Shown: positions 1,722 to 64,000 of the stretch, piece by piece
Layout: each line of letters opens with the position of its first letter
How positions within the stretch are numbered: the stretch's first letter is position 1
Assembly: GCA_934162195.1 (NCBI GenBank)
Contig: CAKPHO010000005.1
Span: 6,515 to 70,514, forward strand
DNA length: 64,000 bases
Direction of reading: 5' to 3'
Source of the DNA: an uncultured Bacilli bacterium
Lineage (GTDB): Bacteria > Bacillota_I > Bacilli_A > RF39 > UBA660
Made by a program: the position numbers and the translations under genes
Notes under the pieces: model-generated
Databases searched by the model: none
What the model was told of the DNA's origin: nothing
Seen by the model: the letters and a program-made list of their open reading frames with translations, nothing else

Positions 1722-2001
1722 TTAATTATTAGTGTAAAGGTACAATTATTTGTGCCTTTCTTTTTTGTGAAATATGGGGGTATATTTAATCATACTATAA
1801 TATTAAATGAAAAAATAAACACAAAGAAGCTAGGCTTTTAAATAACCTAGATTTCTTTGCGTTTTTTTGCTGTGCCTTTATAGGAAGGGAGTTGTTGTAT
1901 AAATACATAAAACACAAAAAATATATATTATGACTGGATGTTTATAATAAATAAAAAAGGGTATAATTAGAATGTATAATAGAGAGAGGAGTAAGAAATA
2001 T
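1722..2001. repeat. Conserved upstream module, copy 1: G5 tract + TTTAATCATACTATAAT + hairpin/T-run + second -10 (GGGTATAATTA) + RBS
   Basis: ~80% nucleotide identity to 26056..26369 and partial identity to 53545..53720; G-run 1776..1780, TATAAT 1796..1801, hairpin ~1820..1860 with T7 at 1863..1869. Confidence 0.7.
1737..1769 (+). terminator. Putative intrinsic terminator after ftsX
   Basis: AAAGGTAC/GTGCCTTT imperfect stem followed by CTTTTTTG. Confidence 0.4.
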
Positions 2002-10294: not shown

Positions 10295-10502
10295 ATAAAA
10301 ACTTTGAGCTTGAGGAGTAAACTAAAGCGTTTTAAAGAGAGTCTATGGTTGGTGGAAATAGATAAATTAATTAGTTGAAGGTAGCAAGCTAGTTGAATAT
10401 CTAAGTAAATAGGATATTACGTATATTATGCGTTAAATAATTAAGGTGTAGAAATACATAAATTAAGGTGGTACCACGTAAACTCACGTCCTTATCTGGG
10501 AT
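10295..10502 (+). promoter_or_regulatory. T-box riboswitch leader upstream of valS
   Basis: AGAGAG box; conserved T-box sequence AAGGTGGTACCACG at ~10468..10481; terminator hairpin ACTCACGTCC/GGATGTGAGT followed by a T-run immediately before the RBS. Confidence 0.7.
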
Positions 10503-13076: not shown

Positions 13077-13139
13077 TAAGCCTGTTTTTTTGTTAACAAA
13101 TGCCTAGGTATTTCATATATTACTGTAGGGAGGTGACTT

Positions 13140-13529
13140 ATGAATGAACTAAATAATACTGCAAGTGCGAATGGAACATATAATAATATTCCAACATCTG
13201 TTACGTCTAATACCTCAGTGGTAAATATGATAGAAGGACTTACACTAACTAAAGAAGCAGACAAACAAAATTGGAGTAGTGGAGATTTAACATACACAAT
13301 AACTTTAAAAAATGAAACAGATAAGGTATATTCAAATTTGGTCATTAAAGATGTTATTAATACAACTTTAGTAGAGTTTGTAAAAGGTAGTGTGACTATT
13401 AACGGAAATAATGCATTAGAATCACAATATTCTTACGACGAAGGAACTAGTACATTAACAATCAATTTAAATGATGCAGGACCCTCATCAACAAATACTC
13501 TCACGTTTCGCGTTACAAAAAAAAGTTAA
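13140..13529 (+). CDS. DUF11 (conserved repeat domain) protein, short, possibly a remnant
   Basis: LTLTKEADK...GDLTYTITLKNETDKVYSNLVIKDVI...FVKGSVTINGNN matches the DUF11/TIGR01451 repeat-domain pattern; RBS GGGAGGTGA; no signal peptide, only 129 aa. Confidence 0.45.
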   Translation: MNELNNTASANGTYNNIPTSVTSNTSVVNMIEGLTLTKEADKQNWSSGDLTYTITLKNETDKVYSNLVIKDVINTTLVEFVKGSVTINGNNALESQYSYDEGTSTLTINLNDAGPSSTNTLTFRVTKKS

Positions 13530-13674
13530 TCGTTATTTTGTTTTAAATACATGTTCATTACTTTATTATAATAATGGTAGAGAGTTAAAAAGTAACTATG
13601 TTTTAGTCATAAGTCCAATAAATAGATACTATAAAGAAAATTATACTTGCTCAACACCTTATTGGCATAAATAA

Positions 13675-13699
13675 GAATCACTTAATGTGATTTTTTTTA
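13675..13699 (+). terminator. Intrinsic terminator (AATCAC-TTAAT-GTGATT + T8)
   Basis: Perfect 6-7 bp stem plus a T-run. Confidence 0.6.
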
Positions 13700-13745
13700 A
13701 TTACTATGAAAAACGTCCATATTTTGACAAAAAACTTAAAAAGTA

Positions 13746-13778
13746 TTGACTATTAATTTAATTTTGTGCTATTATAAG
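13746..13778 (+). promoter_or_regulatory. Promoter of the small pilin gene (TTGACT-18-TGcTATTAT extended -10)
   Basis: TTGACT 13746..13751; TGCTATTAT 13767..13775. Confidence 0.55.
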
Positions 13779-13808
13779 AATGTAAATAAGGTAAGGTGGT
13801 GAGAATAA

Positions 13809-14168
13809 ATGAAAATGAATAAGAAAGGTTTTACTTTAATTGAATTATTAGCAGTTATCGTAGTATTAGCTATTATCGCTTTAATCGCTACTCCAATTGT
13901 TATGAGTACAATTAATAAAGCTCAAGAAGGTGCAAATAAGAGATCTGTAGAAGGTTACATGAAAGCTTATGAAGCAGCATACTATGAATATATGCTTGAA
14001 AATGGTGGTGCTGAACCAGCAACTAAATTAACTTCAGGTATTGATTATAATGGTGCTACAGTTGAATGTGCAACAATTACAGTAACAGCTGATAAAAAAT
14101 TCAGTGCTACTTGTACAGTAAATGGTAAGACTTACTCATATGCAAATGGGAAAGCTGATAATAAATAA
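13809..14168 (+). CDS. Type IV major-pilin-like protein (prepilin with C-terminal disulfide loop)
   Basis: NKKGFTLIELLAVIVVLAIIALIATPIV class III signal; 119 aa; two Cys near the C-terminus (CATITVTADKKFSATC) typical of the pilin D-region; own promoter and terminator. Confidence 0.8.
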   Translation: MKMNKKGFTLIELLAVIVVLAIIALIATPIVMSTINKAQEGANKRSVEGYMKAYEAAYYEYMLENGGAEPATKLTSGIDYNGATVECATITVTADKKFSATCTVNGKTYSYANGKADNK

Positions 14169-18289: not shown

Positions 18290-19336
18290 ATGAAGAAAAA
18301 AGGCTTTACTTTAATAGAATTACTAGCGGTAATAGTAGTATTAGCTATCATTGCTCTAATAGCAACACCAATAGTAATGAGTGCAATTGAAAAATCAAAG
18401 AAAGGAGCAGCTGAGAGAAGTGCGGATAGCTACATCAAACAAGTAGAAACAGCAGTAGCAACAGAACGACTAGATGGAAATGAAGTCCAAAATGGAACAT
18501 ACGAAATAGATGGTGAAGGGAATTTAACAGGAAAAGGATTGCCAAACAATAAATTAGTTATTGACATGAAAGGAAATAAACCAATATCTGGAACAATAAC
18601 AATAAAAGATGGACAAGTAACAAATGATTCTAAGATGACAATTGGTGATTATGATGTTAAATATAATGAAGATAAAAAGAAATATGAAGCAACAAAAAGT
18701 GGTGGGACAAATCCAGATACACCATCAGTAAAAACATTATGTACTAAAAAAGAAGGAGTAGATTTAAATAATTTAGCTTCTGGAAATGAATTTACTTGTG
18801 AATTAGGAGATAATGATGCAAAAACATTTTATGTCTTAGAAACAAATGAGGATAATGTATCATTAATAATGAATGCTAATATTGATTCAAATGGAAAAGC
18901 TATAACGCCAGATAACATTCCAGATGATAAAGGATTAGTTGCATGGTCGGAAGACGGAAGCAATCATAAGGATGATGATGAATCAGCACAAGCAGTAACA
19001 GCAAAGGCATACTTATCATCAAGTACAACAAATTGGACTAAACTAAATCAATCACAAATTAAATTACCAACGGCAAGTCAGATTGCAGCAACGGCAGGGA
19101 CAACATTTGATGGTGTTAGTATGATAATGGGTTTACCAGCATGGATATATGATAACATGGATGGTACAGCAAATGCTGTATCTGGAATACCTGCTTATTG
19201 GACATCAACACCTTATAAATCTAATGATACTAATGCTTGGGGTGGTGGTGCTTACTCCAATCTAAGTAATTATAGTAGCGCAAGTACTTACGGTATACGT
19301 CCAGTAATAACTGTCTTAAAATCTGATCTTTCGTAA
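18290..19336 (+). CDS. Modular pilin-like protein: prepilin N-terminus + DUF1566/Lcl-like C-terminal module
   Basis: MKKKGFTLIELLAVIVVLAIIALIATPIVM; the first ~45 codons are nearly identical at nucleotide level to 26370 and 53768; C-terminal motif YWTSTPY...AWGGGAY...YGIRPVITVLKSDLS. Confidence 0.8.
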   Translation: MKKKGFTLIELLAVIVVLAIIALIATPIVMSAIEKSKKGAAERSADSYIKQVETAVATERLDGNEVQNGTYEIDGEGNLTGKGLPNNKLVIDMKGNKPISGTITIKDGQVTNDSKMTIGDYDVKYNEDKKKYEATKSGGTNPDTPSVKTLCTKKEGVDLNNLASGNEFTCELGDNDAKTFYVLETNEDNVSLIMNANIDSNGKAITPDNIPDDKGLVAWSEDGSNHKDDDESAQAVTAKAYLSSSTTNWTKLNQSQIKLPTASQIAATAGTTFDGVSMIMGLPAWIYDNMDGTANAVSGIPAYWTSTPYKSNDTNAWGGGAYSNLSNYSSASTYGIRPVITVLKSDLS

Positions 19337-19455: not shown

Positions 19456-21258
19456 ATGAAGCAGGAAAATATAAGAAATTTTTCTATTATTGCTCATATC
19501 GATCATGGCAAGAGTACTTTAGCTGATCGTATTTTGGAACTTACTGGGGCAATAGATGAAAGGGAAAAACAAGAACAATTATTAGATAATATGGAACTTG
19601 AAAGAGAACGAGGTATTACAATTAAGTTAAATGCGGTAAGACTTAAATATCATTATAAAGATGAAGATTATATGTTAAACTTAATTGATACTCCAGGTCA
19701 TGTTGATTTTACGTATGAAGTATCACGTAGTTTGGCAGCATGTGAAGGAGCTATTCTTGTTGTTGATGCAGCACAAGGGATTGAAGCTCAGACTTTAGCA
19801 AATCTTTATCTAGCTTTGGATAATGATTTAACAATTATTCCTGTTATAAATAAAATAGATTTACCTAATGCTGATCCTGAAAAAGTAAAGAAAGAACTAA
19901 TGGATACATTAGGATTTAATGAAGATGAAATAATTTTAACGAGTGCAAAAAATGGAATTGGTATTAAAGAATTGGTAGAAACAATTATAGAAAGAGTACC
20001 TAGTCCTAAAGGTAATAAAAAGAATAAGTTACAGGCTTTAATATTTGACAGTATATATGATCCTTATCGTGGTATTATCACATTATCTAGAGTGATGGAT
20101 GGTAGTGTTAAAGTTGGGGATAAAATAAAAATGATGGCAACTGGTGCTACTTATGATATTACAGAGATTTTGGTTCATAACCCTAAAGAAGTTAAAGTTG
20201 ATAAATTGGGTCCTGGAGAAGTAGGATGTATATGTGCTAGTATTAAAAGTATTAATGATGTAAAAGTGGGGGATACCATTACTAATGATGATGATCCTGC
20301 AAGTAAACCTTTACCGGGGTATAAACCTATGAAACCAATGGTATTTTGTGGACTTTATCCAATTGAGTCGTCACGTTATCCAGAACTTCGTGAAGCGTTA
20401 GAAAAACTAAAATTGAATGATGCTTCTTTAGAGTTCGAACCTGAAACATCAAAAGCTTTAGGTTTTGGATTTAGATGTGGGTTCCTAGGACTTTTACATA
20501 TGGATATTATTGAAGAGAGAATTGAAAGAGAATTTAAAATAGATTTAATTGCAACTTCTCCTTCTGTTGTTTACGAAGTAACACTAACTGATCATTCTAC
20601 CGTAATTATTGATAGTCCAGTTAAAATGCCTGATAAACAAAAAATATTGGATATTAAAGAACCGTATATCAGAACTAATATCTTTGTGCCTAGTGAATAT
20701 ATAGGTCCAATAATGGAATTATGTCAAGATAAGCGTGGTAATTATATTTCTATGGAATATTTAGACCCTACACGTGTTAATATTCATTATGAAATTCCAC
20801 TATCGGAAATTGTATATGATTTTTTTGATAAGTTAAAATCTACAACTAAGGGTTATGCTTCTTTTGACTATGAATTGATTGGGTATAAAAGTAGTGATTT
20901 GGTTAAAATGGATATTTTACTTAATGGTGAAGTTGTCGATGCTTTAAGTGTTATTGTTCATAAGGATTTTGCATATAAGCGTGGTAGAAGTTTTGTTGAG
21001 CAATTGCGAAAATTAATTCCTCGCCAACAGTTTGAGGTTCCAATTCAAGCATGCCTTGGAAATAAAGCTATTGCTCGTGAAACTGTTAAAGCAGTACGTA
21101 AGGATGTTTTAGCTAAATGTTATGGTGGAGATGTTTCACGTAAAAGAAAGTTACTTGAAAAACAAAAGGAAGGTAAAAAAAGAATGAAAATGGTAGGTAG
21201 TGTTGAAATACCACAAGAAGCATTCTTGGCTGTTTTAAGCATGGAGGATGAAAAATGA
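19456..21258 (+). CDS. lepA: Elongation factor 4 (LepA)
   Basis: G-domain motifs [22 protein letters not shown]; LepA-specific C-terminal domain; ~600 aa. Confidence 0.92.
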
Positions 21259-21674
21259 CAATAGGTGAATTAACAAATATAGCTAATGAGTATTTAAATG
21301 AAAATATTTCATTAAGGGAGTTATCGTCCCGTCATGGAATATCTAAATCATCTTTGGTTAGGTATTTTAATAGGCAACAATTGATTGTTTTACCATATAA
21401 CTTACAGATGAAAGTAGATGCTAAAAAAGAAAAAAATTGGATTGATGGTAAATCGACTAGTGGTAATTTAGGATATAAAACAGCAACTAAAGAAGAAATA
21501 CAAGCGATGGCTAATATGGCGATAGAAAACAACTTGTCACTAAGGGAACTTTCTAATGTTGTTAATGTAAGTTATACTACACTGTATTCATTCTTCACTG
21601 TAGAAAATCTGGGAGTTGAATTATATCAACAGGTTTTAAATTTATATAGTGAAAATAAAAATAAAAGAAAATAA
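21255..21674 (+). CDS. Hypothetical DNA-binding protein with duplicated helix-turn-helix-like segments
   Basis: Two repeats of the pattern LRELS...ISKSSL / [15 protein letters not shown]; overlaps the lepA stop (ATGA). Confidence 0.45.
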
Positions 21675-21695
21675 TCATTTCTGAAGATTATTTTC
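21667..21695. terminator. Bidirectional terminator hairpin (GAAAATAATC-9nt-GATTATTTTC) containing both convergent stop codons
   Basis: Perfect 10-bp inverted repeat; the TAA (21672..21674) of the + gene and the TGA (21675..21677, minus strand) of the fic-like gene lie inside the stem. Confidence 0.6.
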
Positions 21696-22298
21696 TTTTT
21701 CTTTTTGAACTATAGCTTTCATAAATTCCATTTCTAACATGCTAGGATATATGTATCTTTGTACTGTTCCCATTAAAAGATTTTTACTATCCATTTTAGT
21801 ATAATCAATATCTAGTGGACCACAAGGAAGGTTTTTGCTTTTCTCTAAAACAAATTCTCTCATAAATATTCTTATTGTTCTTCCATTTCCTTCTCTAAAG
21901 GGATGAACCATAATTAAATCGTGATAAAAAGGAGCAATATAAAAGGCTAATTCTGGAATTGAAGAAATATTTCCAATCTTATTTAAATCATTAAGAATTT
22001 CATCTAAAGATTTAGTGATATTTTGTGGATTGCAGAAACTAGTCCTATCTTTTCCTAAAGTGCATAATCTTATTTCTCCTGCAAAAGGATATATTTTTCC
22101 AAAAACAAATTTATGAATTTTTTTTAAATCTTCAATATCAAAATTTTTACATATTGGTTTTAAATATAGCGTAGCCATTGTTTTTCTAGTAATAGCTCTT
22201 TCTGTTTCTTTTAATTTTTCTAAGCTTGTAATATTTAAATTATTTTTTAAAACATCTGTTCCTTCAATTAAATAATCATCCCAATGATCTATTTCCAT
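21675..22298 (-). CDS. Fic/Doc-family protein (AMPylase-type)
   Basis: Canonical Fic motif HPFREGNGRTIR (HxFx[D/E]GNGRxxR); start taken at MEIDHW, supported by an AGGATGG RBS. Confidence 0.8.
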   Translation of the reverse strand: MEIDHWDDYLIEGTDVLKNNLNITSLEKLKETERAITRKTMATLYLKPICKNFDIEDLKKIHKFVFGKIYPFAGEIRLCTLGKDRTSFCNPQNITKSLDEILNDLNKIGNISSIPELAFYIAPFYHDLIMVHPFREGNGRTIRIFMREFVLEKSKNLPCGPLDIDYTKMDSKNLLMGTVQRYIYPSMLEMEFMKAIVQKEKENNLQK

Positions 22299-22443
22299 TA
22301 TAACCATCCTTAATTTTAGTCTTTTTTTTGTTATTGTCTTCGGTTTTTGTTTTAATGTCAACACTTACTTCTTCAAAGCTAATATTTGCATCTGCCTGTC
22401 TAAGCGCTTCTTTAAGTTTTTTAAGCCTTGCAATCTTATCCAT
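22276..22443 (-). CDS. Small Lys-rich ORF (55 aa) overlapping the fic start; possible partner or antitoxin-like protein
   Basis: ATG preceded by AAGGAAG; MDKIARLKKLKEALRQADANISFEEV...; overlaps the first 23 nt of fic; not in the ORF track (<60 aa). Confidence 0.3.
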   Translation of the reverse strand: MDKIARLKKLKEALRQADANISFEEVSVDIKTKTEDNNKKKTKIKDGYNGNRSLG

Positions 22444-26369: not shown

Positions 26370-27311
26370 ATGAAAAATAAAAAAGGATTTACACTTATCG
26401 AATTACTAGCGGTAATAGTTGTGTTAGCAATAATAGCACTAATAGCAACACCAATAGTAATGAATACAATAAAAAATGCGAAGAAAGGGGCAGCTGAAAG
26501 AAGTGCCGATAGCTACATAAAACAAGTAGAAACAACAGTAGCAGAAGCAAGGTTAGATAATAAAACAGTACCAGATGGAACATATCAAATAGATGAAGAA
26601 GGAAATTTAACAGGAGCAGGCTTACCAGATGGTAAATTAAAAATAGAAATGAATGGAAATAAGCCAACTTCTGGGATAATAGCAATATCAAATGGAGAAG
26701 TTTCACAAACAGGAACAACGATGACAATAGGAGAATATAATTTACGTTATAATGAAACATCAAAAAGCTATACTGCTGAAGTAGCAATTAAATTATGTAA
26801 AAAAGCATCAAGTGTAAATTTAAGTGATTTAAAATTAGGTGACGAATTTACATGTGATTTAGGTGATGAAGAAACAACTAAAAACTTAGTATTCTATGTG
26901 TTAGAAAAAAATGGTTCACAAGTATCTTTGATTATGAATAAAGTATTTACAACTCCAGCTGGAGATAAAGTTCCATATTCAATGAAAGCTAATGTATTTA
27001 AACTTTTCAAATATACTAAACTAGATGAATCACAAATTACTTTACCAAGTGGAGAGCAAATTGCCGCAGCAAGTAATAATACAACTTGGACACCAAGCGG
27101 TTCTAATACAGCTTTAGTTACAAATCAAATGCCAGATTGGTTAAAAACAAATTTAGATGTTACTGGTACATTCTGTTATTGGACATCAACAGCTTATGAT
27201 TCTAGTAAACAATGGGGCGCTGGATTAAAGGGGTTATATGCTGAAACAGCAGGTAATGCAACTTGTGGATTCCGTCCGGTTATAACAGTTTCAATATCTG
27301 CTTTAGGATAG
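26370..27311 (+). CDS. Modular pilin-like protein: prepilin N-terminus + DUF1566/Lcl-like C-terminal module
   Basis: MKNKKGFTLIELLAVIVVLAIIALIATPIVM; YWTSTAYDSSKQWGAG...CGFRPVITVSISALG. Confidence 0.8.
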   Translation: MKNKKGFTLIELLAVIVVLAIIALIATPIVMNTIKNAKKGAAERSADSYIKQVETTVAEARLDNKTVPDGTYQIDEEGNLTGAGLPDGKLKIEMNGNKPTSGIIAISNGEVSQTGTTMTIGEYNLRYNETSKSYTAEVAIKLCKKASSVNLSDLKLGDEFTCDLGDEETTKNLVFYVLEKNGSQVSLIMNKVFTTPAGDKVPYSMKANVFKLFKYTKLDESQITLPSGEQIAAASNNTTWTPSGSNTALVTNQMPDWLKTNLDVTGTFCYWTSTAYDSSKQWGAGLKGLYAETAGNATCGFRPVITVSISALG

Positions 27312-31169: not shown

Positions 31170-31747
31170 ACTTAGAAGATTATGCTCATAAAAATAATAT
31201 TCCTATTATGATGAAAGATGGAATTGAGTTTTTATTAGACTATATTAAAAATAACAATATAAAAAATATTCTAGAAATTGGTTCAGCAATTGGTTATTCG
31301 GCAATCAAAATGGCTTTAGTAGATGATAGTATTAAAGTTACAACAATAGAAAGAGATGAAGAAAGGTATAAGGAAGCTTTAAAAAATATTAAAGATTTTA
31401 ATTTAAATAGTAGAATAAATATTATTTTAAGTGATGCTTTTGAAGTAGAATTTAATGATAAATATGATTTAATATTTATTGATGCAGCTAAGAGTCAGTA
31501 CATCAAGTTCTTTGAGAAGTTTAAAGAAAATTTAAATGATAATGGAGTTATTGTTTCTGATAACTTAAATTTTCATGGACTTGTTCATGCGGATGAGAAA
31601 AATCTTAGTAGAAATGTCAGAGGCCTTGTTCGAAAATTAAATAATTATGTTGATTATTTAAAAAGTAATAAAGAATTTAAAACTTTATTTTATGATATTG
31701 GTGATGGAATTAGTATCAGTAAAAAGGTAGGTGTTAAAGATGAATAA
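31154..31747 (+). CDS. Class I SAM-dependent O-methyltransferase (YrrM-like, family 3)
   Basis: SAM-binding motif ILEIGSAIGYSAI; DLIFIDAAKSQY; conserved position after mltG. Confidence 0.7.
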   Translation: MVRILDLEDYAHKNNIPIMMKDGIEFLLDYIKNNNIKNILEIGSAIGYSAIKMALVDDSIKVTTIERDEERYKEALKNIKDFNLNSRINIILSDAFEVEFNDKYDLIFIDAAKSQYIKFFEKFKENLNDNGVIVSDNLNFHGLVHADEKNLSRNVRGLVRKLNNYVDYLKSNKEFKTLFYDIGDGISISKKVGVKDE

Positions 31748-32078
31748 AAAAGGATTTACTTTAGTTGAACTTATTGGAGTAGTGGTTATATTAGGGCTTA
31801 TTGCTCTAGTGGCTTTTCCAGCTTTATTAAATCAAATTAAAGATAGTAAGAAACAAGTTAGTGATAGTCAAAAAGAAATCATTATTTCTGCCGCAAAAAG
31901 CTATGTTTCTGAAAACAAAAATAATTATGCAGATATGTCATCTTTCGAAATTCCTGTTAGTGACTTAATAAATGGTAGTTATCTTGATAAAAACATTATT
32001 AATTCACTTTCTAATAATAATAATATAGTAGTTACTTTTAATAACGGAACTTATGATGTAGTAATAAAAACAGGTTAG
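31740..32078 (+). CDS. Small pseudopilin-like protein (class III signal)
   Basis: MNKKGFTLVELIGVVVILGLIALVAFPALL is a G|FTLVE prepilin motif; 113 aa; RBS AAGGTAGGTG; overlaps the 3' end of the methyltransferase gene. Confidence 0.7.
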   Translation: MNKKGFTLVELIGVVVILGLIALVAFPALLNQIKDSKKQVSDSQKEIIISAAKSYVSENKNNYADMSSFEIPVSDLINGSYLDKNIINSLSNNNNIVVTFNNGTYDVVIKTG

Positions 32079-37480: not shown

Positions 37481-37846
37481 ATGAAAAAAGGATTTACTTT
37501 GATAGAATTATTAGCTGTTTTAGTTGTTTTAGGGTTACTTGGGCTAATAGTTATTCCTACTGTGGACAAAATATTAAAAGATAGTAGAAATGATTTATAT
37601 GATTTACAAATAAAAAATATAGAAGATGGGGCTAGAAATTGGGCAGCTAAAAATCCATTAATACTCCCTGAAAATGGTAATTCAATAACCAAAACAATAG
37701 CTGAATTAGAAGAAGAGGGATTTATTGAAATGGATGTAAAAAATCCTAAGACAGGGGACACTTTTTGTGATGATTCTTATGTAACAATAACTAATACAGG
37801 TAGTGGGTTTACTTATAGTTACGCTGTTGATTCAGGAAGTTGTTAA
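37481..37846 (+). CDS. Small pseudopilin-like protein (class III signal)
   Basis: MKKGFTLIELLAVLVVLGLLGLIVIPTV; 121 aa; C-terminal Cys pair. Confidence 0.7.
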   Translation: MKKGFTLIELLAVLVVLGLLGLIVIPTVDKILKDSRNDLYDLQIKNIEDGARNWAAKNPLILPENGNSITKTIAELEEEGFIEMDVKNPKTGDTFCDDSYVTITNTGSGFTYSYAVDSGSC

Positions 37847-41710: not shown

Positions 41711-43783
41711 ATGAAAAATAAAAAAGCATTTACTTTAATAGAATTACTAGCGGTAATAGTAGTATTATCTGTGGTAGTAGCTATTACAGTACCTGTGGTT
41801 TCTAAATCAATAGAAAATTCTAAAAAAAATAGTGCTATAGAGAGTGCTAATGGTCTAATTCAATCTGCAGAATATTATTTTTTAACAGCGTCTCCAAAAT
41901 ATGGTAAAATTGATGTTTTAAATGAAAAATTGAATTTTAAAGGTGAAAAACCAGACTTTGGAGAAGTTGAAATAAATAAACAAGGAAAATCAAGAATTTA
42001 CACATATGTTAATGGTTATTGTGTAACAAAAGAGTTTGGAACTGAGTTATATGCAAATAAAACGACTAAAGAAGATTGTAGTTGGTTTGGAACAGATAAT
42101 TATGAAACAACTGATGGAACTACATTTACTTTAAATAATCAATCAGTAAAAAACTATTTAATATATGGAAATAGTACTCAAGCAACAAGAATTGGTAAGA
42201 ATTTATTTAATCCATCTGCATGGAGTACAGCTGTAACAGGTGGTGGTTTGACAGTTCAATATTTAGAAGATCAAGATTGCTTTTTAATAAATGGTACTGC
42301 AACTGCAACTACTATTGTAGCAGCAAAGTATATAAATATCCCAAGTGAAGTTAACACCTCGTATGTTTTATCTACTCAATATGTAAGTGGAAGTATAGAT
42401 AGAACTAATGGTGAAAGTAGTAAATATGCGGTAGCATATTTTGGTAATGGTGACGAAATTAATACAGCAAATAATTGGTATGAAATTAATATGCAAAATA
42501 GTGATGTAAATAATTCTGCTAAAATAAATAGTAAAAGCTATATTACAAGATTTTGGTTTTATGTCAATAAAGGAGTTAAATTTAATAATTATAAAGTTAG
42601 AATTCAATTAGAAAAGGGAACAACTGCAACTTCGTATGAAGAATATGGAGTAATGCCAAGTCCAGCATTTCCAAGTGAAGTAAAAAGTACTGGAGATTTA
42701 CTAACAAGTAGTAATTGCTCTAGTTATGGAAGTGATGCTTGTAATAATGTAGGTAAGTATGTAATACAAGTTAAGGATAGAGGCAAGAATTTATTTGATC
42801 ATAGTTATTTAAAGCAACAGGACTCATCGGGTGGATTAACAATGACAAGTACTGGTGACGTTATAACAATTAATGGAAAATTAACTAATCCTAGTAATAT
42901 AAAACTTTCTGATGTTTTTCCAAATATATTTGATGTAAATAAAACCTATACATTAAAAATTGATGTAGTAGGTGGAAGCGGGGCAATTGGAGAAGGAACA
43001 GGAATAACGTTTGCGTTTTCTTTATTTAATTCATCAAACACTAAATATATAAGAACAAATGTAAATGCAACAGCACTAGATAATATAGCTTCTGTAACCT
43101 TTTCTGGAAGTGTTTTTGCAGGAGAAGAGAAATTACACCTTTTATTACAGAATTGGAGATTAGGAAATACTTACAGTAATTATCAAGTAAGGATTCAAAT
43201 AGAGGAAGGTAGTAGTGCAACATCTTATGAAAGTTACAAAGCCGCTTTAACAAATATATATTTAGATGAACCGTTAAGAAAAGTAGGGGATTATGCAGAT
43301 TATATAGATTTTAATAATAAAAAAGTTGTTAGAAATGTATCTAAGAAAGTATTTAACGGAACTGATAATGATGTTTATTGGGGTAAAAATATAGATTATG
43401 GTGATTATGTATCATTTTACACTACATCTGATGTAAAGACTTTTAAAGGAATTAATGGATTAGGATATAGTAATGTAGCAAAAGTTACTTCATGGGATAA
43501 GATTTCAAATTCAAATGGTAATTATTGGTGGCAATTTTTACCTACTTCATATGGAATGAGAATAAATAAATCATATTTAAGTAATTATGATAGTGCTACA
43601 GATAAAATAGGTGTATTTAAAACTTGGTTAAAAAGTAATAATATTGAAGTTGTTCAAGCTTTAAATACACCAACAGAACAATCAATAAACTTACCAGAAA
43701 TAGAAGTGTTAGATGGAAATAGTACTTTATTAATAAATACTAGTGTTCAACCAAGTAATATTAAATTAACAACTAATAAATAA
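41711..43783 (+). CDS. Large modular pilin-like protein (prepilin N-terminus + ~650-aa C-terminal region with an internal repeat)
   Basis: MKNKKAFTLIELLAVIVVLSVVVAITVPVV; internal duplication YKVRIQLEKGTTATSYEEYG / YQVRIQIEEGSSATSYESYK. Confidence 0.75.
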   Translation: MKNKKAFTLIELLAVIVVLSVVVAITVPVVSKSIENSKKNSAIESANGLIQSAEYYFLTASPKYGKIDVLNEKLNFKGEKPDFGEVEINKQGKSRIYTYVNGYCVTKEFGTELYANKTTKEDCSWFGTDNYETTDGTTFTLNNQSVKNYLIYGNSTQATRIGKNLFNPSAWSTAVTGGGLTVQYLEDQDCFLINGTATATTIVAAKYINIPSEVNTSYVLSTQYVSGSIDRTNGESSKYAVAYFGNGDEINTANNWYEINMQNSDVNNSAKINSKSYITRFWFYVNKGVKFNNYKVRIQLEKGTTATSYEEYGVMPSPAFPSEVKSTGDLLTSSNCSSYGSDACNNVGKYVIQVKDRGKNLFDHSYLKQQDSSGGLTMTSTGDVITINGKLTNPSNIKLSDVFPNIFDVNKTYTLKIDVVGGSGAIGEGTGITFAFSLFNSSNTKYIRTNVNATALDNIASVTFSGSVFAGEEKLHLLLQNWRLGNTYSNYQVRIQIEEGSSATSYESYKAALTNIYLDEPLRKVGDYADYIDFNNKKVVRNVSKKVFNGTDNDVYWGKNIDYGDYVSFYTTSDVKTFKGINGLGYSNVAKVTSWDKISNSNGNYWWQFLPTSYGMRINKSYLSNYDSATDKIGVFKTWLKSNNIEVVQALNTPTEQSINLPEIEVLDGNSTLLINTSVQPSNIKLTTNK

Positions 43784-48689: not shown

Positions 48690-48910
48690 TTATATTGAAA
48701 GACAAACGAAGAGAGTAGTAATAATAAATTATGTTTAGAGAAGAAGTGGTTGGTGAAAACTTCTAATAAAATATTATGAACTTGCTTTTCTAGTTGCTTA
48801 TAGCCGTAGTTCTGCGTTAAAGATTTGAGAGTGTAATAAAATATTATGAAATAAGGTGGTACCGCGATCAATCGTCCTTATATTTATAATATTTTTGTTT
48901 TTAAGGAGGA
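48690..48910 (+). promoter_or_regulatory. T-box leader upstream of the small-membrane-protein/leuS operon
   Basis: AAGAGAG box; T-box sequence AAGGTGGTACCGCG 48853..48866; no canonical GC-rich terminator; CCTTAT (48876..48881) is complementary both to the upstream ATAAGG and to the SD TAAGGAGG. Confidence 0.55.
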
Positions 48911-48916
48911 TTTTTT

Positions 48917-49261
48917 ATGAAATATATTATTATGTTTGTGGTATCGTTTTTAGTGGTTTATTTAGCATATCTTTTTACGGTTATTTTAAATAAGAAAAAA
49001 TTAAAAAAATTTGAAACTAGTAATCAAGCTTTATACTTTAACAAAAAATATAATGTTAAAGTTAGTGATAAGAATGTAAAGTTACTTGCTAATTTAGTAG
49101 CGATTTCTAATGCATTTATTATTAGTACTACTTTGATTATTATTGATTTAGTACCAAACTATATATTAAAAGTATTAGTTGCGTTTGTAATAATAATTCC
49201 ACTAATTTTAGTTTTATATCACATTGTTGGTTTAGTAATGTTGAAAAGAGGTAATAAATAA
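48917..49261 (+). CDS. Small membrane protein (hypothetical), first gene of the leuS operon
   Basis: RBS AAGGAGG; three TM helices; its stop overlaps the leuS start (TAATG). Confidence 0.5.
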
Positions 49262-53767: not shown

Positions 53768-54772
53768 ATGAAATTAAAAAATAAACACGGATTTACACTT
53801 ATAGAATTACTAGCGGTAATAGTAGTATTAGCAATAATCGCACTAATCGCAACACCAATAGTAATGAATACAATAAAAAAATCAAAGAAAGGAGCAGCTG
53901 AGAGAAGTGCGGATAGCTACATAAAACAAGTAGAAGTAGCAGTAGCAGAAGAACGACTAAATAAAAATGAAGTACTAGAAGGAGAATATCAAATAACAAG
54001 TGATGGAAATCTATGTAGAGATAAAAGTGCAAGTTGTTCAGATGATAACAAAATAAAAATAGAAATGAGCGGAACAAAACCAACATCAGGGAAAATAAAG
54101 ATAACAAATGGAAGTGTTGATCAATCATCATCAAGTATGATAATAGGAGATTATACTGTTTCATATAATTCTACTAAGAAAACATATGAAGCAATAGAGA
54201 AAGGAAATACACCACAAGTAGAAGTATTGTGTACAGCAAAAACAGCAGCAACAAAAGGAAATGTACCACAAGGACAATTTGCCTATGGAGATGGATATAC
54301 ATGTGAATTAGGTGATAATGATGCAAAAACATTCTTTGTACTAGAAACAAATGGAGATAATGTATCATTAATCATGGATAGAAACATAGATTCAAATGGT
54401 AAAGGAACAACAAGTGGAGGAAATACAGTAGCTTGGTGTAAATCAGGAAGTAATAATACATGTGCTGCAGATAGAGCATTAGAATACTTAAAAACAAGTA
54501 CAACAGGATGGACAAAATTAACAGAATCACAAATAAGCTTACCTTCATATGATCAAATATATAAAGCTGCGGGTAATAAAACTTCGGGATTACCAACATG
54601 GCTATATGAAAATAATGTATATGGTTATTGGACATCAACCCCTCATGCGTCTAACTCTAACCGCGCTTGGCTTGTGAACTACCACGGCAACTTGAACTTC
54701 AACTTCGTCGACTTCGACGACAGCTATGGCGTTCGTCCAGTTATAACTGTCTCAAAATCACAATTAGGATAA
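53768..54772 (+). CDS. Modular pilin-like protein: prepilin N-terminus + DUF1566/Lcl-like C-terminal module with a GC-shifted 3' end
   Basis: NKHGFTLIELLAVIVVLAIIALIATPIVM; first ~55 codons nearly identical to 26370 at nucleotide level; C-terminus YWTSTPHASNSNRAWLVNYHGNLNFNFVDFDDSYGVRPVITVSKSQLG. Confidence 0.8.
   Translation: MKLKNKHGFTLIELLAVIVVLAIIALIATPIVMNTIKKSKKGAAERSADSYIKQVEVAVAEERLNKNEVLEGEYQITSDGNLCRDKSASCSDDNKIKIEMSGTKPTSGKIKITNGSVDQSSSSMIIGDYTVSYNSTKKTYEAIEKGNTPQVEVLCTAKTAATKGNVPQGQFAYGDGYTCELGDNDAKTFFVLETNGDNVSLIMDRNIDSNGKGTTSGGNTVAWCKSGSNNTCAADRALEYLKTSTTGWTKLTESQISLPSYDQIYKAAGNKTSGLPTWLYENNVYGYWTSTPHASNSNRAWLVNYHGNLNFNFVDFDDSYGVRPVITVSKSQLG
54640..54772 (+). other. GC-shifted, AAC/NNC-codon-rich 3' segment, candidate DGR variable repeat (VR)
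   Basis: 15 of 16 consecutive codons end in C (aac tac cac ggc aac ttg aac ttc aac ttc gtc gac ttc gac gac agc); composition differs sharply from the rest of the gene; aligns codon-for-codon with 10126..10248, the only template-like partner in this window. Confidence 0.5.
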
Positions 54773-54776
54773 AAGA

Positions 54777-54810
54777 AAATGGTAAGTCGATGACTTGCCA
54801 TTTTTAGTTT
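54777..54810. terminator. Bidirectional terminator/hairpin between the pilin-like gene and tetR (AAATGGTAAGTC-GAT-GACTTGCCATTT + T-run)
   Basis: 11-12 bp stem with one G.U pair, immediately 3' of the candidate VR; the T-run overlaps the tetR stop. Confidence 0.6.
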
Positions 54811-55367
54811 ATATTATCTGGAATTAATATTTTTAAGTATTCCATAATTTGATCTTTAGTATACTTAGAACTATCACTTAACCATTCAACACCTAAGTTA
54901 ATAACCCCACCTAAATAGAATTTAGCAATTATATCACTAGGTATCTTTTTACTAATACTATCAGTTTTAATTTTATTTAAAATATCTTCATTAACAACAC
55001 TTAGTAAAATATCCATCATAATACTATTACGATTGTTAATCATGATAGAGCTATAAACATTTCTTTTGCTTTCAATATGATCTAAAAATAGTTCGATTAA
55101 TTTTATATAGTATTCTCTAGTGTTTAGATTATTGCTATTTTTATTAAGTTCATTAACAAATTCTTCTTTTAGATTACTAATAAAGTCTACTAGTAATTCA
55201 TATTTATCTTCGTAGTGAGCGTAGAAAGTAGAACGATTAATCATGGCTTTAGAACAAATATCAGAAACTTTTATTTCTTCAAAAGTTTTATCTTTCATTA
55301 AATCTATTAAGGCTTGATAGAGTAAGTTTTTAGTCTTAACAACGCGTAAATCTTTTTTCTTTTCCAT
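54804..55367 (-). CDS. TetR/AcrR-family transcriptional regulator
   Basis: N-terminal HTH LRVVKTKNLLYQALIDLMKDKTFEEIKVSDICSKAMINRSTFYAHY; divergent from the transporter gene. Confidence 0.8.
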   Translation of the reverse strand: MEKKKDLRVVKTKNLLYQALIDLMKDKTFEEIKVSDICSKAMINRSTFYAHYEDKYELLVDFISNLKEEFVNELNKNSNNLNTREYYIKLIELFLDHIESKRNVYSSIMINNRNSIMMDILLSVVNEDILNKIKTDSISKKIPSDIIAKFYLGGVINLGVEWLSDSSKYTKDQIMEYLKILIPDNIN

Positions 55368-59369: not shown

Positions 59370-59597
59370 ATGAATATAGAATATAATGAAGTACCTAACA
59401 TTATTAGTGGTAAAGATTTAGATTATTTAAGTGATATGTTTAATTGGAATTATGGAGCGTATAAATCTTCATATAATGCAAGTAATAATGTAGAAGATGC
59501 AGAAATAAAAGATATTTTAGTATGTGCTAGCAATATATTTTATAATGATATGAATAGGGTGTTAAATATTTTAAATAATGGAGGATCTAATGAATAA
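59370..59597 (+). CDS. Small hypothetical protein
   Basis: RBS GGGAGG; 75 aa; translationally coupled to the next gene. Confidence 0.4.
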   Translation: MNIEYNEVPNIISGKDLDYLSDMFNWNYGAYKSSYNASNNVEDAEIKDILVCASNIFYNDMNRVLNILNNGGSNE

Positions 59598-59907
59598 TAA
59601 TGAAATTAAAAATCCAAAGGTAAATGTTCCATCTGGGAAAAATTTAAATGATAAAGATTATATTAATTGTTTACTTAGTACATTAAAAGAATTAAATAAA
59701 AATTATGTAGTTGGACTTACAGAAGCAAGTAACGAACACTTATATCAAGAATATAAAAATATGTTTGAAGAATATTCTAAGATGCAAAGAGAAGTATATG
59801 AATTAATGTTTAAAAAAGGATGGTATACTTTAGAAAAAGCTGAAACAAATAAAATTAATAATAAATTTCAAACATTAAATCAAGAATTAACAGAATTAAA
59901 TGGATAA
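59590..59907 (+). CDS. Coat F-domain protein (spore coat protein F-like)
   Basis: DKDYINCLLSTLKELNKNYVVGLTEASNEHLYQEY...EVYELMFKKGWYTLEKAE fits the Coat_F domain pattern; RBS GGAGG. Confidence 0.5.
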   Translation: MNNNEIKNPKVNVPSGKNLNDKDYINCLLSTLKELNKNYVVGLTEASNEHLYQEYKNMFEEYSKMQREVYELMFKKGWYTLEKAETNKINNKFQTLNQELTELNG

Positions 59908-60211: not shown

Positions 60212-61081
60212 GTGAATAATTATGAAAAAATTATGGAAAAAATAAAACGTGATCAAAGGTGTAGGCCTAAAAATTGTCCTGGGCCCACAGGACCACAAGG
60301 TCCACAGGGAATACCTGGTATTCAAGGACCACAAGGTGAAATAGGTCCTCAGGGAATACCTGGTAAGAGTGTTTCAATTCTAGGGGAATATAAAACTTAT
60401 GAAGAGTTAATAAAAAATCATCCTACAGGTAATGTTAATGATTCGTATTTAGTAAATGGTGATTTATACGTTTGGACAGAAAATGATGGCAAGTGGGATA
60501 ATGTTGGAAGAATAGCTGGACCAACAGGGCCTAAAGGAGATATTGGCCCTAAAGGAGAAAAAGGGGAAGATGGACCAACGGTATTACGTTCAGCTTATTT
60601 GGTTACTTTTAATGATGGTAATAATAAAGATGGAATAGAGGTTCCGAGAAATACAAATTTATCAATAACTAGAAAAGAGTTGGATGTTACTGATTTAGTG
60701 TCACTAAATACTGATAATACTATTAAGTTTAATGTTCCTGGATATTATAAAGTATCTTTTGTTGTATCAGCAACTATAAAAAATGAGAGTAATAAGTTTA
60801 ATCAAGATACTGATTTTATAACTTTGGGATTTAAGCAAAAAGATACAGACTTAATTTATGTAGGAGCAAGCAAGTGGGTAAATAGTGAGTTGGGAACGCA
60901 AATTTTTGGGCATGGTATTGTGGCAGTAACTAATACCAATAATTTATATGAACTTACTAATTTAGGTAGCAAGACAATTTATTTAAAAGCTCCAGATTTA
61001 AATAATATTATGTCATCTTCTTATTTTACTAATTCATTATTAACTATTGTTATTGATTATTTAGGAATAAAACAAGTTTAA
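60212..61081 (+). CDS. Collagen-like repeat protein with a globular C-terminal domain (BclA-like)
   Basis: G-X-Y repeats GPTGPQGPQGIPGIQGPQGEIGPQGIPGK and GPTGPKGDIGPKGEKGEDGPT; ~170-aa C-terminal non-collagen domain; probable GTG start after a GAGGAGG RBS. Confidence 0.7.
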   Translation: MNNYEKIMEKIKRDQRCRPKNCPGPTGPQGPQGIPGIQGPQGEIGPQGIPGKSVSILGEYKTYEELIKNHPTGNVNDSYLVNGDLYVWTENDGKWDNVGRIAGPTGPKGDIGPKGEKGEDGPTVLRSAYLVTFNDGNNKDGIEVPRNTNLSITRKELDVTDLVSLNTDNTIKFNVPGYYKVSFVVSATIKNESNKFNQDTDFITLGFKQKDTDLIYVGASKWVNSELGTQIFGHGIVAVTNTNNLYELTNLGSKTIYLKAPDLNNIMSSSYFTNSLLTIVIDYLGIKQV

Positions 61082-61095
61082 GGATAAGGTGTTTG

Positions 61096-62970
61096 ATGAA
61101 AATAATAAATAATAAAAGAGTTCAGGTGTTCACAAGTGAAGAATTGAATAATGTTTTAAAGATGGATAATGGTTATGATTATATATATTTAGGTAATAGT
61201 ATAGTTTTAGATAATGGAATTTCTATAAATGAAAACAAAATAAAAGTTACAATAGATGGAACTTATGAAGGATTTAGATATAAACTTACAGGGATAAATA
61301 GTACTGATATATCTGATACGATTATAGTTAGTGAAAATAATAAGGAAGTAATAATAAAAAATATGGATATTGAGAGTACTAATACTTATGGTGTAGTTTA
61401 TGTTCCGTTAGATAGAAACTATTCTGATGTAGTGGTAACATATGAAAATATTAAATTTAATGGAACTGAATTGTCATATAATCCTTATGGCACTACTAAA
61501 ATAATAGACTCAACTATTACAATTGAAACAACTAATAATGTTGATCCACAAGAAGTTTGTGATTCGGATAAAGTAATTCTTGGTGGTAATACTACTATAT
61601 CAAGTAAATCAACTTCTACACAGTTATTTTATTTTCGAAATGATACAATAAATCCTTCAGTAGTATTTTTATGTAAAAGTAAAGTCACTTTATCAACGCC
61701 TACCCAAGCTTTTATGAATGGAACCAATAAACTTAATTTTACTATCTTACATGATACAGAAGTTGATTTAACGACTGGTAATGGTTTTGCAGCTTATACT
61801 ACTCATGGTGCTAATAATGTATTGATTGAAGAAAGAGCTAGTTTAAAATTTATAGAGAACAATCATCAAAGAGTACCAATGTGGTCGGTATTTGGGAATT
61901 TTATTATGAAAGAAGGCTCCAAATTACAACTTATTAATTCCTTTGATAACACTCCAAGTGATAATTATAATATTCACTTTAAAGGAAATAATCAACAATT
62001 AATTTTGAATAATCCCAAGGTGGTAGCTATATATACTAAGAATGCTAATGTTATTTATACTAATAATCCATTAATATTTAAGATTAGTTGTAGTAGAATT
62101 AATATGTGGAAGGATTCAACATCTTTAGTAAATGCTGGAGGTATATACGATTTACCAGATTATTATTGGTATAAAGGAAAAGAATTAGTAAAATTTGAAG
62201 GGACTTTAACATCTAAAGAAACAACCGTTACTAATCATAATCTTACAGACGATGAATTAAATGAATTATTTGAATTAAGTAATTTTTCATTTCAGTCTAA
62301 AAAACAGTTTTCAATTGGAAATATAGCTACTAATATTCATTCTATTAGTAGTACAAGAAATAAAATAAGTGGACATACTATTGATTTTGCAGAAGTACTA
62401 ATAAAATATAATGATGTCTTAGAAATAGTTAATGCAAATAGTGATGGATTATTTGAACATATACCTACTAATGTTATTTCAGATAATACTGAAATAGAAA
62501 TAATTTCTAATAATCCAAGTAGTTTTGTTTATGAAACAAGAAAAATAATAGTACCTTATAGTGGTGAATTATCTTTAATGGAAACAGATACAACGATAGT
62601 TTTTTCTTTAACGTCTATTTCTAGTAATCCTCTTATTTTAGCAAAAAATAAGAATTTATTACTTAAAATAGTTGATAGTAGGATAAATAGTTCTAATTGG
62701 AAAGTATATGCTTCAATAAGTGGACCATTAACATCACAAAATGGATATATTTTAAATGATGCCTTAATATTTAAAACATTTGATGATATAGATATTGTGT
62801 TAACAAAAGAACCACAACTTATCTATACGGGAACTGATAATAATGGAGATATATTAAGAAATGTTATTACTTATTCGAACGATAAAGGACCATTACTTGA
62901 TCTTACTAATAATTTTTTAGAAGCTAATGAAGAATATTTTGCTGATATATATTTTAAAATTGAAGAGTAA
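61096..62970 (+). CDS. Large hypothetical protein (Asn/Thr-rich, probably beta-rich surface or exosporium-associated)
   Basis: 625-aa ORF between two collagen-like genes; no recognisable catalytic motifs. Confidence 0.4.
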   Translation: MKIINNKRVQVFTSEELNNVLKMDNGYDYIYLGNSIVLDNGISINENKIKVTIDGTYEGFRYKLTGINSTDISDTIIVSENNKEVIIKNMDIESTNTYGVVYVPLDRNYSDVVVTYENIKFNGTELSYNPYGTTKIIDSTITIETTNNVDPQEVCDSDKVILGGNTTISSKSTSTQLFYFRNDTINPSVVFLCKSKVTLSTPTQAFMNGTNKLNFTILHDTEVDLTTGNGFAAYTTHGANNVLIEERASLKFIENNHQRVPMWSVFGNFIMKEGSKLQLINSFDNTPSDNYNIHFKGNNQQLILNNPKVVAIYTKNANVIYTNNPLIFKISCSRINMWKDSTSLVNAGGIYDLPDYYWYKGKELVKFEGTLTSKETTVTNHNLTDDELNELFELSNFSFQSKKQFSIGNIATNIHSISSTRNKISGHTIDFAEVLIKYNDVLEIVNANSDGLFEHIPTNVISDNTEIEIISNNPSSFVYETRKIIVPYSGELSLMETDTTIVFSLTSISSNPLILAKNKNLLLKIVDSRINSSNWKVYASISGPLTSQNGYILNDALIFKTFDDIDIVLTKEPQLIYTGTDNNGDILRNVITYSNDKGPLLDLTNNFLEANEEYFADIYFKIEE

Positions 62971-63089: not shown

Positions 63090-64000
63090 ATGAACAATTG
63101 TTATTGTAATGATGATTATGAAAGAATTAAAAAAAGGATAGAAGAAGAAAATAAAAAGTGTAAATATTATTATATACAAGGTCCAAAAGGGGATAAAGGA
63201 GATACTGGGGAACAAGGCCCAAAAGGAGAAGATGGGGCAGCTACTATAGAAATTGGAGAGACATTAACAGGAGAACCTAATACTGATGCTATAGTAGAAA
63301 ATGTAGGAACAAAAGAGAATGTTATTTTAAATTTTAAAATACCTAGAGGTTTAGATGGAACTTCAGGAGATAAAATTATTATTGGAAAAACAGAAACGTT
63401 AGATGCTAATGCGCGAGCAAAAGTTGTTGATACGCAGAACGGTAATGTTCATACTTTAGATTTCTACATACCACAAGGATTTGATGGTGCAGATGGTGAA
63501 AGGGGTCCTCAAGGAGAAAAAGGAATTCCGGGCATTCAGGGAATTCAAGGAGTTCAGGGAATTCAAGGAATTCCAGGCATTCCAGGTCCAAAAGGAGACG
63601 ATGGAAAAAGTGAAAAAATTTCTATAGTTAATACTGAAACAATAGACTCAGAAAAGAAAGCTGAAGTAAAAGATAATTTTGATGGTAATACACATAATTT
63701 GACTTTCCTTATTCCTAAAGGAGAAATTGGGCCTATTGGACCTCAAGGTCTTACCGGTAGTGCATTACTTGACGCTTATGCAAGTATTTATGAAGATAAT
63801 AAAAATCCTTATTCATTGATACCTAATGTGCCAAATCAAATTGAATTAGGCAAAACATCACAAAATAAAAATGTAGATACTTCATTTACCAATGCTCTTA
63901 AAATTCAAAAAGAAGGTATATATAAAATAGATTATTTTTTTTCAGCAGTAACATCAACTACCGCTGATATATCGGTTGAATTAAGAAAGGAAAATGTAAC
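63090..64000 (+). CDS. Collagen-like repeat protein (BclA-like), 5'-partial in this window, runs off the end
   Basis: RBS AGGAAGG then ATG at 63090; N-terminus MNNCYCNDDYERIKKRI; G-X-Y blocks GPKGDKGDTGEQGPKGEDG and GERGPQGEKGIPGIQGIQGVQGIQGIPGIPGPKGDDG with 9-bp tandem nucleotide repeats at 63520..63590; no stop before 64000. Confidence 0.65.
   Translation, partial: MNNCYCNDDYERIKKRIEEENKKCKYYYIQGPKGDKGDTGEQGPKGEDGAATIEIGETLTGEPNTDAIVENVGTKENVILNFKIPRGLDGTSGDKIIIGKTETLDANARAKVVDTQNGNVHTLDFYIPQGFDGADGERGPQGEKGIPGIQGIQGVQGIQGIPGIPGPKGDDGKSEKISIVNTETIDSEKKAEVKDNFDGNTHNLTFLIPKGEIGPIGPQGLTGSALLDAYASIYEDNKNPYSLIPNVPNQIELGKTSQNKNVDTSFTNALKIQKEGIYKIDYFFSAVTSTTADISVELRKENV

Follow-up and report, generated by a model that had tools for sequence, protein, structure and literature searches.

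Several diversity-generating retroelements (DGRs) close to the one discussed here have been described already. Variable repeats (VRs) in DUF1566/CLec2 domains, MutS-like (MSL) accessory genes and the gene orders avd-RT-TR and TR-avd-RT (RT, reverse transcriptase; TR, template repeat) are all on record, and non-phage DGRs are known to have remote targets more than 100 kb away (PMC5758913). DUF1566 is the commonest reported target domain and pilin-type annotations are occasional (PMC6642488, PMC11661182), and type V pilus adhesins of Bacteroides are diversified by a DGR (bioRxiv 10.1101/2024.11.15.621889). Here we analyze 64 kb of DNA from an uncultured Bacilli bacterium (contig CAKPHO010000005.1; hereafter, the window), in which the 3' ends of two genes, referred to as gene A (53768..54772) and gene B (8611..10248), are very probably variable repeats written by a DGR. 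The mechanism is known, and the genes of the window are a good new example of it. Its less usual features are the type IV pilin-like anchor, the many dispersed paralogs, the two template classes at one RT locus, and TR-like units that lack an RT and have VR-type tails.

The DGR of Legionella pneumophila, whose target LdtA falls in category d / CLec2 VRs with an MSL gene (Wu et al. 2018, PMC5758913), shares with the present system a DUF1566/Lcl-like C-lectin domain with the VR at its very C-terminal end, avd and a small MSL gene as accessories, a chromosomal rather than phage-borne location, and A-to-N mutagenesis on AAC-rich codons. It differs in that the N-terminus is type IV pilin-like here instead of a lipoprotein signal, the host is a gut Bacilli bacterium of 27% GC, the templates fall into two classes, the targets are several and dispersed, and the Lcl_C score is below the cutoff. 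The DGR of Treponema denticola diversifies TvpA and seven remote targets. Unlike the proteins studied here, TvpA is a lipoprotein of the FGE-sulfatase-type CLec class, with no pilin-like anchor or MutS-like accessory reported for it. The system of Bordetella phage BPP-1 (Mtd, Avd, TR, Brt) is instead phage-borne, with a tail fibre as its single adjacent target. The gene order also differs from that of BPP-1, as the TR here precedes MSL-avd-RT or follows the RT, and no cruciform is evident next to the VR of gene B. As in the pilus-tip DGRs of Bacteroides, gut commensals would vary adhesive pilus-associated proteins. However, those proteins belong to the type V pilus of Bacteroidota, whereas the N-termini found here in Bacilli resemble class III/type IV pilin signals, and their assembly into a fibre is only putative.

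Genes A and B and their GC-rich 3' ends

A preliminary description of this DNA had placed the two genes at the coordinates given above and had reported an abrupt shift towards GC-rich codons at both 3' ends. Both points hold. The relevant features are the following:

53768..54772, plus strand: gene A, a target of 334 aa, type IV pilin-like at the N-terminus and with a C-terminal domain modeled as C-type-lectin-like
54639..54740, plus strand: VR-A, the proposed variable repeat of gene A, with A-templated codons within 54644-54727
54728..54740, plus strand: the GC-rich 3' end of VR-A, GGCGTTCGTCCAG, a putative boundary of the IMH (initiation of mutagenic homing) type
8611..10248, plus strand: gene B, a target of 545 aa that has two C-lectin-like modules in tandem and a hydrophobic, pilin-like but degenerate N-terminus
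10115..10216, plus strand: VR-B, the proposed variable repeat of gene B and a second VR class, with the A-templated region at 10126-10203

The GC content of the whole window is 27.3%, with a standard deviation of 5.7% over windows of 100 nt. At this resolution, only four islands in it reach 48% GC or more:

10064-10248: peak 60%, 3' end of gene B
54617-54762: peak 54%, 3' end of gene A
60245-60387 and 63483-63604: collagen-like GxY repeats in BclA-like open reading frames (ORFs)

The two GxY islands were considered as possible TRs and dismissed as collagen-like repeats. We then counted the codons ending in C (NNC) among the 40 codons preceding the VRPV motif, and used as background eight housekeeping genes, where they make up 4.4%. 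Gene A has 20 of 40 (50%, binomial p = 4e-17) and gene B 18 of 40 (45%, binomial p = 1.5e-14). The two segments align codon-for-codon from GCT-TGG to CCA-GTT-ATA-ACT-GTC, over 22 codons and not the 23 counted in the preliminary description. The nine pairs listed there, with positions 1 and 2 changed and the third-position C kept, were recovered exactly; the further differences are four at the third position only and seven of other kinds.

Only the second module of gene B bears a VR, and the internal module, which ends at around 9480, is host-like with 5% NNC. Host-like codons are also found, as previously noted, in two paralogs that are not diversified, so that these and the internal module together span 5-10% NNC and a GC content of 0.34-0.39:

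18290..19336, plus strand: paralog with the same pilin N-terminus and C-terminal scaffold, N_methyl 31.1 bits, GC 0.39, NNC 10% preceding IRPV
26370..27311, plus strand: paralog, N_methyl 35.6 bits, GC 0.38, NNC 5%

The DUF285/BspA-type pilin gene at 1972..3618 (previously given as 2002..3618) had been singled out for the same check, as a gene of another recognized DGR target class. We rejected it as a target, since its 3' end is AT-rich, with no GC island and no VR signature.

In protein searches gene A had one identical match and over 100 orthologs at 57-89% identity, and exact-protein look-ups of gene A and of P0001 gave no record. We compared two sets of 60 orthologs each, 120 in total. 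Over approximately 290 residues from the N-terminus the orthologs hardly vary (mean entropy 0.28 and 0.72 bits in the two sets), and the mean entropy of residues 293-320 is 2.1-2.2 bits. The hypervariable residues are 293, 296, 298, 299, 302, 304, 306, 308, 310-313 and 316-320, and each of the 17 positions whose entropy exceeds 2 bits in 60 orthologs coincides with a codon that bears an A in the TR. Variable positions are interspersed with invariant ones, as in TPxASxSxxAWxVxxxGxLxxxxVDxxxxxGVRPV. Among the residues at hypervariable positions, 1.2-2.2% are K, E, Q, M or W, compared with 20-21% in the body of the protein, and this scarcity matches the repertoire of NNC/NNT codons. When the DNA of the VRs is compared across assemblies, the invariant codons are identical to the letter, and the changes fall on codon positions 1 and 2 with the third base retained. 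Hypervariability between strains is therefore confined to A-templated codons in gene A. The picture is partial for gene B. Many homologs share the scaffold TASSRAxxSxxAWxVxxxAxVxxxxV...GVRPV, and their VRs differ between lineages but are static within several of them.

The N-terminus of gene A contains the prepilin motif, defined as G-F-T-L-x-E followed by a hydrophobic helix. It scores 33.6 bits against N_methyl (PF07963; cutoff 21.2), the only Pfam family above cutoff in this protein, and its profile matches solved type IV pilins. In gene B the motif is degenerate (KGFAISSVVY), with no Glu5 and no Pfam match. The C-terminal domain had been called DUF1566-type, an assignment that falls below threshold by sequence, since gene A scores 17.7 bits against Lcl_C/DUF1566 (PF07603; gathering cutoff 34.9). 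It also remains below the gathering cutoff of DUF6273 (PF19789; 23.5), at 21.4 bits for gene A and 18.8 for gene B; DUF6273 matches are found in 7 of 67 homologs, with a best E of 1e-7. The assignment is based on the modeled fold and on some homologs with better scores. A full-length AlphaFold2 model built with close orthologs only was unusable (pLDDT, the predicted local distance difference test score, 48.9). With a broader alignment, five models of the last 181 aa of gene A were built, the best of which reached a pLDDT of 78.8 and a predicted template modeling score of 0.81. In this model the domain is C-type-lectin-like and most similar to TvpA and Legionella Lcl. The VR lies at the 3' end of the ORF and would encode the variable face of the fold. 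Foldseek alone gave nothing significant with the modeled domain. The structural comparison figures were as follows:

domain of Thomasclavelia ramosa IgA protease: 10.0
DGR protein TvpA: 7.9
Legionella Lcl C-terminal domain: 7.6
Mtd: 5.6
TaqVP: 5.6
dozens of C-type lectins: about 5

Matching templates and the cassettes beside them

To find templates outside the window, we compared it with related contigs, here designated by L numbers (L002, L005, L007, L025, L033, L035, L037 and others). A first genome scan with a strict NNC pattern returned no match, because in real VRs and TRs the third base of a few codons is not C, and because reference genomes differ at synonymous sites. Three scans of viral contigs found no TR of this type, which argues against a phage-borne TR of this type. 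Scanning metagenome contigs with a pattern built solely from invariant codons yielded three more VRs and one non-coding repeat, in L007, with AAC, AAT, TAC or GAC exactly at the variable codons. The TAC and GAC codons had been predicted beforehand, as only restricted sets of residues occur at positions 305 and 306. Compared with this repeat, TR-A, eight VRs have in total 181 changes over the 40 A sites and 39 over the 68 others, the latter mostly at the two ends.

L007 was nevertheless dropped as a working TR: it has no RT within 8.4 kb, its 3' tail is of the VR type, and it is without the conserved 3' RNA module described below. Judged on these traits, the unit is probably chimeric or orphan. 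Units composed of an element, a promoter-like sequence and a TR-like repeat, with no RT, lie downstream of pilin VR genes in L007 (2735-3060, minus strand) and in L005 (1910-2290, minus strand). The former is a pristine all-AAC template and the latter a diversified copy, both with VR-type tails and without the 3' RNA module. Recombination between TR and VR may have produced them, or they may be secondary templates.

A degenerate TR pattern scanned over one genome per GTDB species detected 16 TR-like sites, in reference metagenome-assembled genomes of gut Bacilli/Erysipelotrichaceae, with labels such as uncultured Bacilli, Erysipelotrichaceae and Holdemanella. DGR-type RTs adjoin no fewer than 14 of the sites, and some of the sites are beside pilin-like genes. 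The common layout in very low-GC Bacilli is MutS_I-like, bAvd, RVT_1 and TR, with pilin-like genes alongside in L009 and L017. A protein search with one of the RTs led to three syntenic chromosomal loci in the context of Bro-N, parA-parB and rpsF-ssb-rpsR, with the following gene order:

L033: gene A ortholog (67% identity, A-type VR), conserved element of ~220 nt, TR-A, MutS_I, bAvd, RVT_1 RT
L035 and L037: B-type VR gene, ~220-nt element, TR-B, the same MutS_I/bAvd/RVT_1 cassette

The RTs of the three loci are nearly identical RVT_1 proteins with YMDD and the DGR motif-4 signature PIGNMSSQ. The same RT locus thus carries TR-A in L033 and TR-B in L035 and L037, and each time the VR class of the adjacent target matches the template, which implies that templates and targets have been swapped by recombination. 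TR-A, with the sequence GCTTGGAATGTGAACTACGACGGCAACTTG..., has 5 mismatches between its L033 and L007 copies; TR-B has the sequence GCTTGGAACGTGAACTACAATGCTAACGTG....

Measured against these TRs from related contigs, both VRs of the window differ almost only on template adenines. Of the 35 A sites, 14 differ between VR-A and the TR-A of L007, as do 4 of the 64 non-A sites; the L033 copy gives 14 and 5. The core of VR-A has a single non-A mismatch. None of the other sequences in the fetched loci fits nearly as well, the next best having 14 non-A mismatches. For VR-B and the TR-B of L037, the differences number 20 among 34 A sites and 6 among 65 non-A sites (p = 2e-7). The preliminary description had regarded each segment as the only template-like sequence for the other in the window, a placement that it could not confirm. 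Mutual templating is excluded by the 17-18 non-A mismatches to the TR of the other class, counted for VR-B against TR-A. From the sequence comparison, the VRs of the window are two classes with two templates, in which TR-A would write gene A and TR-B gene B.

The homology between VRs and TRs stops at GGCGTKCGYCCAG, after which VRs read TTATAACTGTC and RT-linked TRs ATTTCC.... Past the 3' end of VR-A, VRs run ...CCAGTTATAACTGTC and RT-linked TRs ...CCAGATTTCCTAAGG. By analogy with phage BPP-1 (PMC3240598), 54728..54740 would act as an IMH-like boundary. Directly 3' of the TR is a structured RNA common to seven low-GC Bacilli cassettes, formed by a long-range stem around nested hairpins, an invariant AAACAAG and a second hairpin. 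In total, pairing holds in 88.5% of cells, and compensatory changes are seen in 19 of the 26 pairs; none of 500 shuffles reaches the observed values and all slid controls are much lower. Like the RNA spacer of the BPP-1 DGR, this module would position the RT for priming.

Altogether, the proposal of a DGR is supported by the confinement of gene A variability to A-templated codons in the 120 orthologs, by cognate TRs with adenine-specific differences to both VRs, by the MutS_I/bAvd/RVT_1 cassettes that these TRs adjoin beside orthologous targets, and by the modeled C-type-lectin-like fold. The best explanation is a chromosomal DGR that acts in trans on dispersed target genes, with template and RT outside the window. 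The source genome itself would carry such a cassette, as its relatives do. Elsewhere in the genome, a short AAC/AAT-rich TR would be transcribed together with the conserved structured RNA 3' of it. Aided by bAvd and the small MutS-domain-I protein, the RT would copy the TR RNA into cDNA, faithfully except opposite template adenines, and the cDNA would replace the VR up to the GC-rich boundary. We take cDNA synthesis, adenine misincorporation and homing at this boundary from established DGR biology (PMC3240598, PMC5758913). Such writing would impose a GC-rich template composition on an AT-rich gene, keep the third-position C, and change only A-templated codons, which could turn into codons for any of the 15 NNC/NNT amino acids but not into stops. 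What the VRs would encode is the face with which a C-type-lectin-like domain, anchored by a type IV pilin-like N-terminus, binds its ligand, and the likely outcome is a diversified surface adhesin or receptor, with adhesin function as the putative role.

Two further structures lie near targets and templates. One is a conserved GC-rich hairpin element of ~120 nt, between the stop codon of the target and the promoter-like sequence upstream of the TR:

L033 8750-8900, L035 1400-1540, L037 1590-1730, and in L007 and L005: ~120-nt hairpin element

One of its hairpins shows a compensatory change, GCCGATTT...AAATCGGC versus GCCAATTT...AAATTGGC, and an Rfam search of the ~220-nt element and of the hairpin element upstream of the TR gave no match. 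The hairpin element may act as terminators, form a structure for target recognition, or belong to the DGR RNA. The other structure follows gene A:

54775-54805, plus strand: hairpin and T-run between the convergent gene A (53768..54772) and TetR gene (54804..55367)

It was detected both in a terminator scan (14 pairs and T-run) and by folding (-20.1 kcal/mol, z = -3.4). The hairpin reported at 54777..54803 is therefore present, but its reading as part of the usual DGR geometry does not hold. No equivalent was seen after gene B or after the VR gene of L002, so we do not count it as a DGR element, and it is most likely an intrinsic terminator between convergent genes.

Objections and alternatives to the proposed DGR writing

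Several observations weigh against this explanation. To begin with, there is no RT, avd or TR within the 64 kb, to which this search was confined. This absence, reported in the preliminary description, was confirmed for RT and avd by Pfam on 40 ORFs and the precomputed annotation of a syntenic locus, for RT, Avd and MutS-like proteins by six-frame tblastn with DGR queries, and for the TR by an adenine-tolerant scan of both strands, where even the best hit, over 108 nt, had 24 non-A mismatches. Since the cognate TRs were taken from other strains, 4-5 non-A mismatches remain to VR-A and 6 to VR-B. Only the best of the five fold models was confident. The 90% cluster of gene A is composed of four sequences. 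The three closest strain variants (98-100% identical) have identical VR-A and differ outside it by about five residues and one indel; the fourth member, at 89% identity, has a VR different from that of the window. There is thus no sign of ongoing diversification at the timescale of near-identical strains. Similarly, the exact gene B protein is present on 3 contigs, and in several B-type lineages the VR stays fixed over many protein clusters. In L025, which is syntenic with the window, the VR of the positional ortholog of gene B has many third-position changes and a GC content of 0.47, which suggests that some B-type VRs are decaying.

These data would fit VRs written by a DGR in the past and now drifting under AT pressure in a strain where the DGR is lost or silent. 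The six non-A mismatches between VR-B and its best TR-B and the RT-less TR-like units with VR-type tails in L007 and L005 point in the same direction. We consider this explanation unlikely, although it has to be taken seriously. NNC codons persist at 45-50% against a background of 4.4%, which indicates little decay, the core of VR-A has only its one non-A mismatch, and intact cassettes with near-identical RTs are found in close relatives. Identical VRs in near-clonal strains are not decisive either, as DGR homing is rare and can be checked by selection. The strong retention of NNC codons argues that the writing of the VRs is recent on the evolutionary scale.

Far less probable is a mosaic produced by horizontal gene transfer or gene conversion, in which a GC-rich foreign or paralogous fragment recombined into the 3' ends with no retroelement involved. 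In its favor are the synonymous differences between the two segments noted in the preliminary description. Moreover, the pilin N-terminal module and the A- and B-type C-terminal bodies are clearly shuffled among paralogs, and the chimeric TR/VR units of L005 and L007 suggest recombination at these repeats. Recombination of this kind does not explain why differences between strains fall on template adenines (181 versus 39), why invariant codons are identical in DNA across genomes whose proteins are 67-89% identical, why K, E, Q, M and W are nearly absent at variable positions, or why matching AAC-rich non-coding templates adjoin RTs. Finally, diversifying selection on fast-evolving binding loops rich in Asn, Asp, Tyr and Ser, combined with an odd local codon preference, is ruled out by the pattern at synonymous sites: adhesin loops do commonly evolve fast and paralogs have a similar scaffold without the GC shift, but selection on the protein cannot impose a third-position C or 54-60% GC over ~100 nt, nor hold interleaved codons identical in DNA.

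Returning to DGR-written VRs, a wider and tentative possibility, which we hold to be somewhat less probable than its converse, is that in spore-forming, very low-GC gut Bacilli a single MutS-like/bAvd/RT cassette serves interchangeable TR-A and TR-B, with extra RT-less TR-like units behind other pilin genes, and so diversifies a large, dispersed family of pilin-anchored C-lectins. If true, this would be a Gram-positive counterpart of the pilus-tip DGRs of Bacteroides, with a multi-template layout in trans that RT-centered finders largely miss. A compositional island with a run of NNC codons can reveal remote DGR targets when the RT and the template are far outside the sequence in hand, and RT-centered pipelines usually overlook such targets. 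The data point to a family of pilin-like lectin proteins in uncultured Bacilli of the human and animal gut. Its members with binding surfaces rewritten by a retroelement are candidates for the recognition of host glycans, phages or neighboring cells, and, with two template classes sharing one RT locus, the system lends itself to asking how a DGR chooses and switches targets.

Other pilin-like genes and features of the window

At least eight genes of the window have the prepilin N-terminal methylation motif. They are scattered singly, outside any pilus operon, and their neighbors include the housekeeping genes lon, valS, lepA, thyX, murE/F and leuS:

1972..3618, 13809..14168, 18290..19336, 26370..27311, 31731..32078, 37481..37846, 41711..43783 and 53768..54772 (plus 8611..10248): prepilin-motif genes

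Only two of the scattered pilin-type genes have a VR signature. T-box leaders above the Rfam gathering score lie upstream of valS (10295-10496) and of leuS (48702-48882), and a 114-aa ORF with no Pfam match (48917..49261) is found between the second leader and leuS. In L025, an IS605 OrfB/TnpB (Cas12f-like) gene at 12664..13848 separates the gene B ortholog with the valS T-box leader from the site equivalent to valS in the window. Near the end of the window, 60212..61081 and 63091..64000 encode collagen-like GxY-repeat proteins that resemble BclA and the exosporium, 59370..59907 holds small spore-coat-like ORFs, and 61093..62970 encodes a 625-aa protein with no Pfam match. A Fic/DOC-family gene on the minus strand (21255..22364) lies beside a small HTH protein, within a block of housekeeping genes otherwise on the plus strand.

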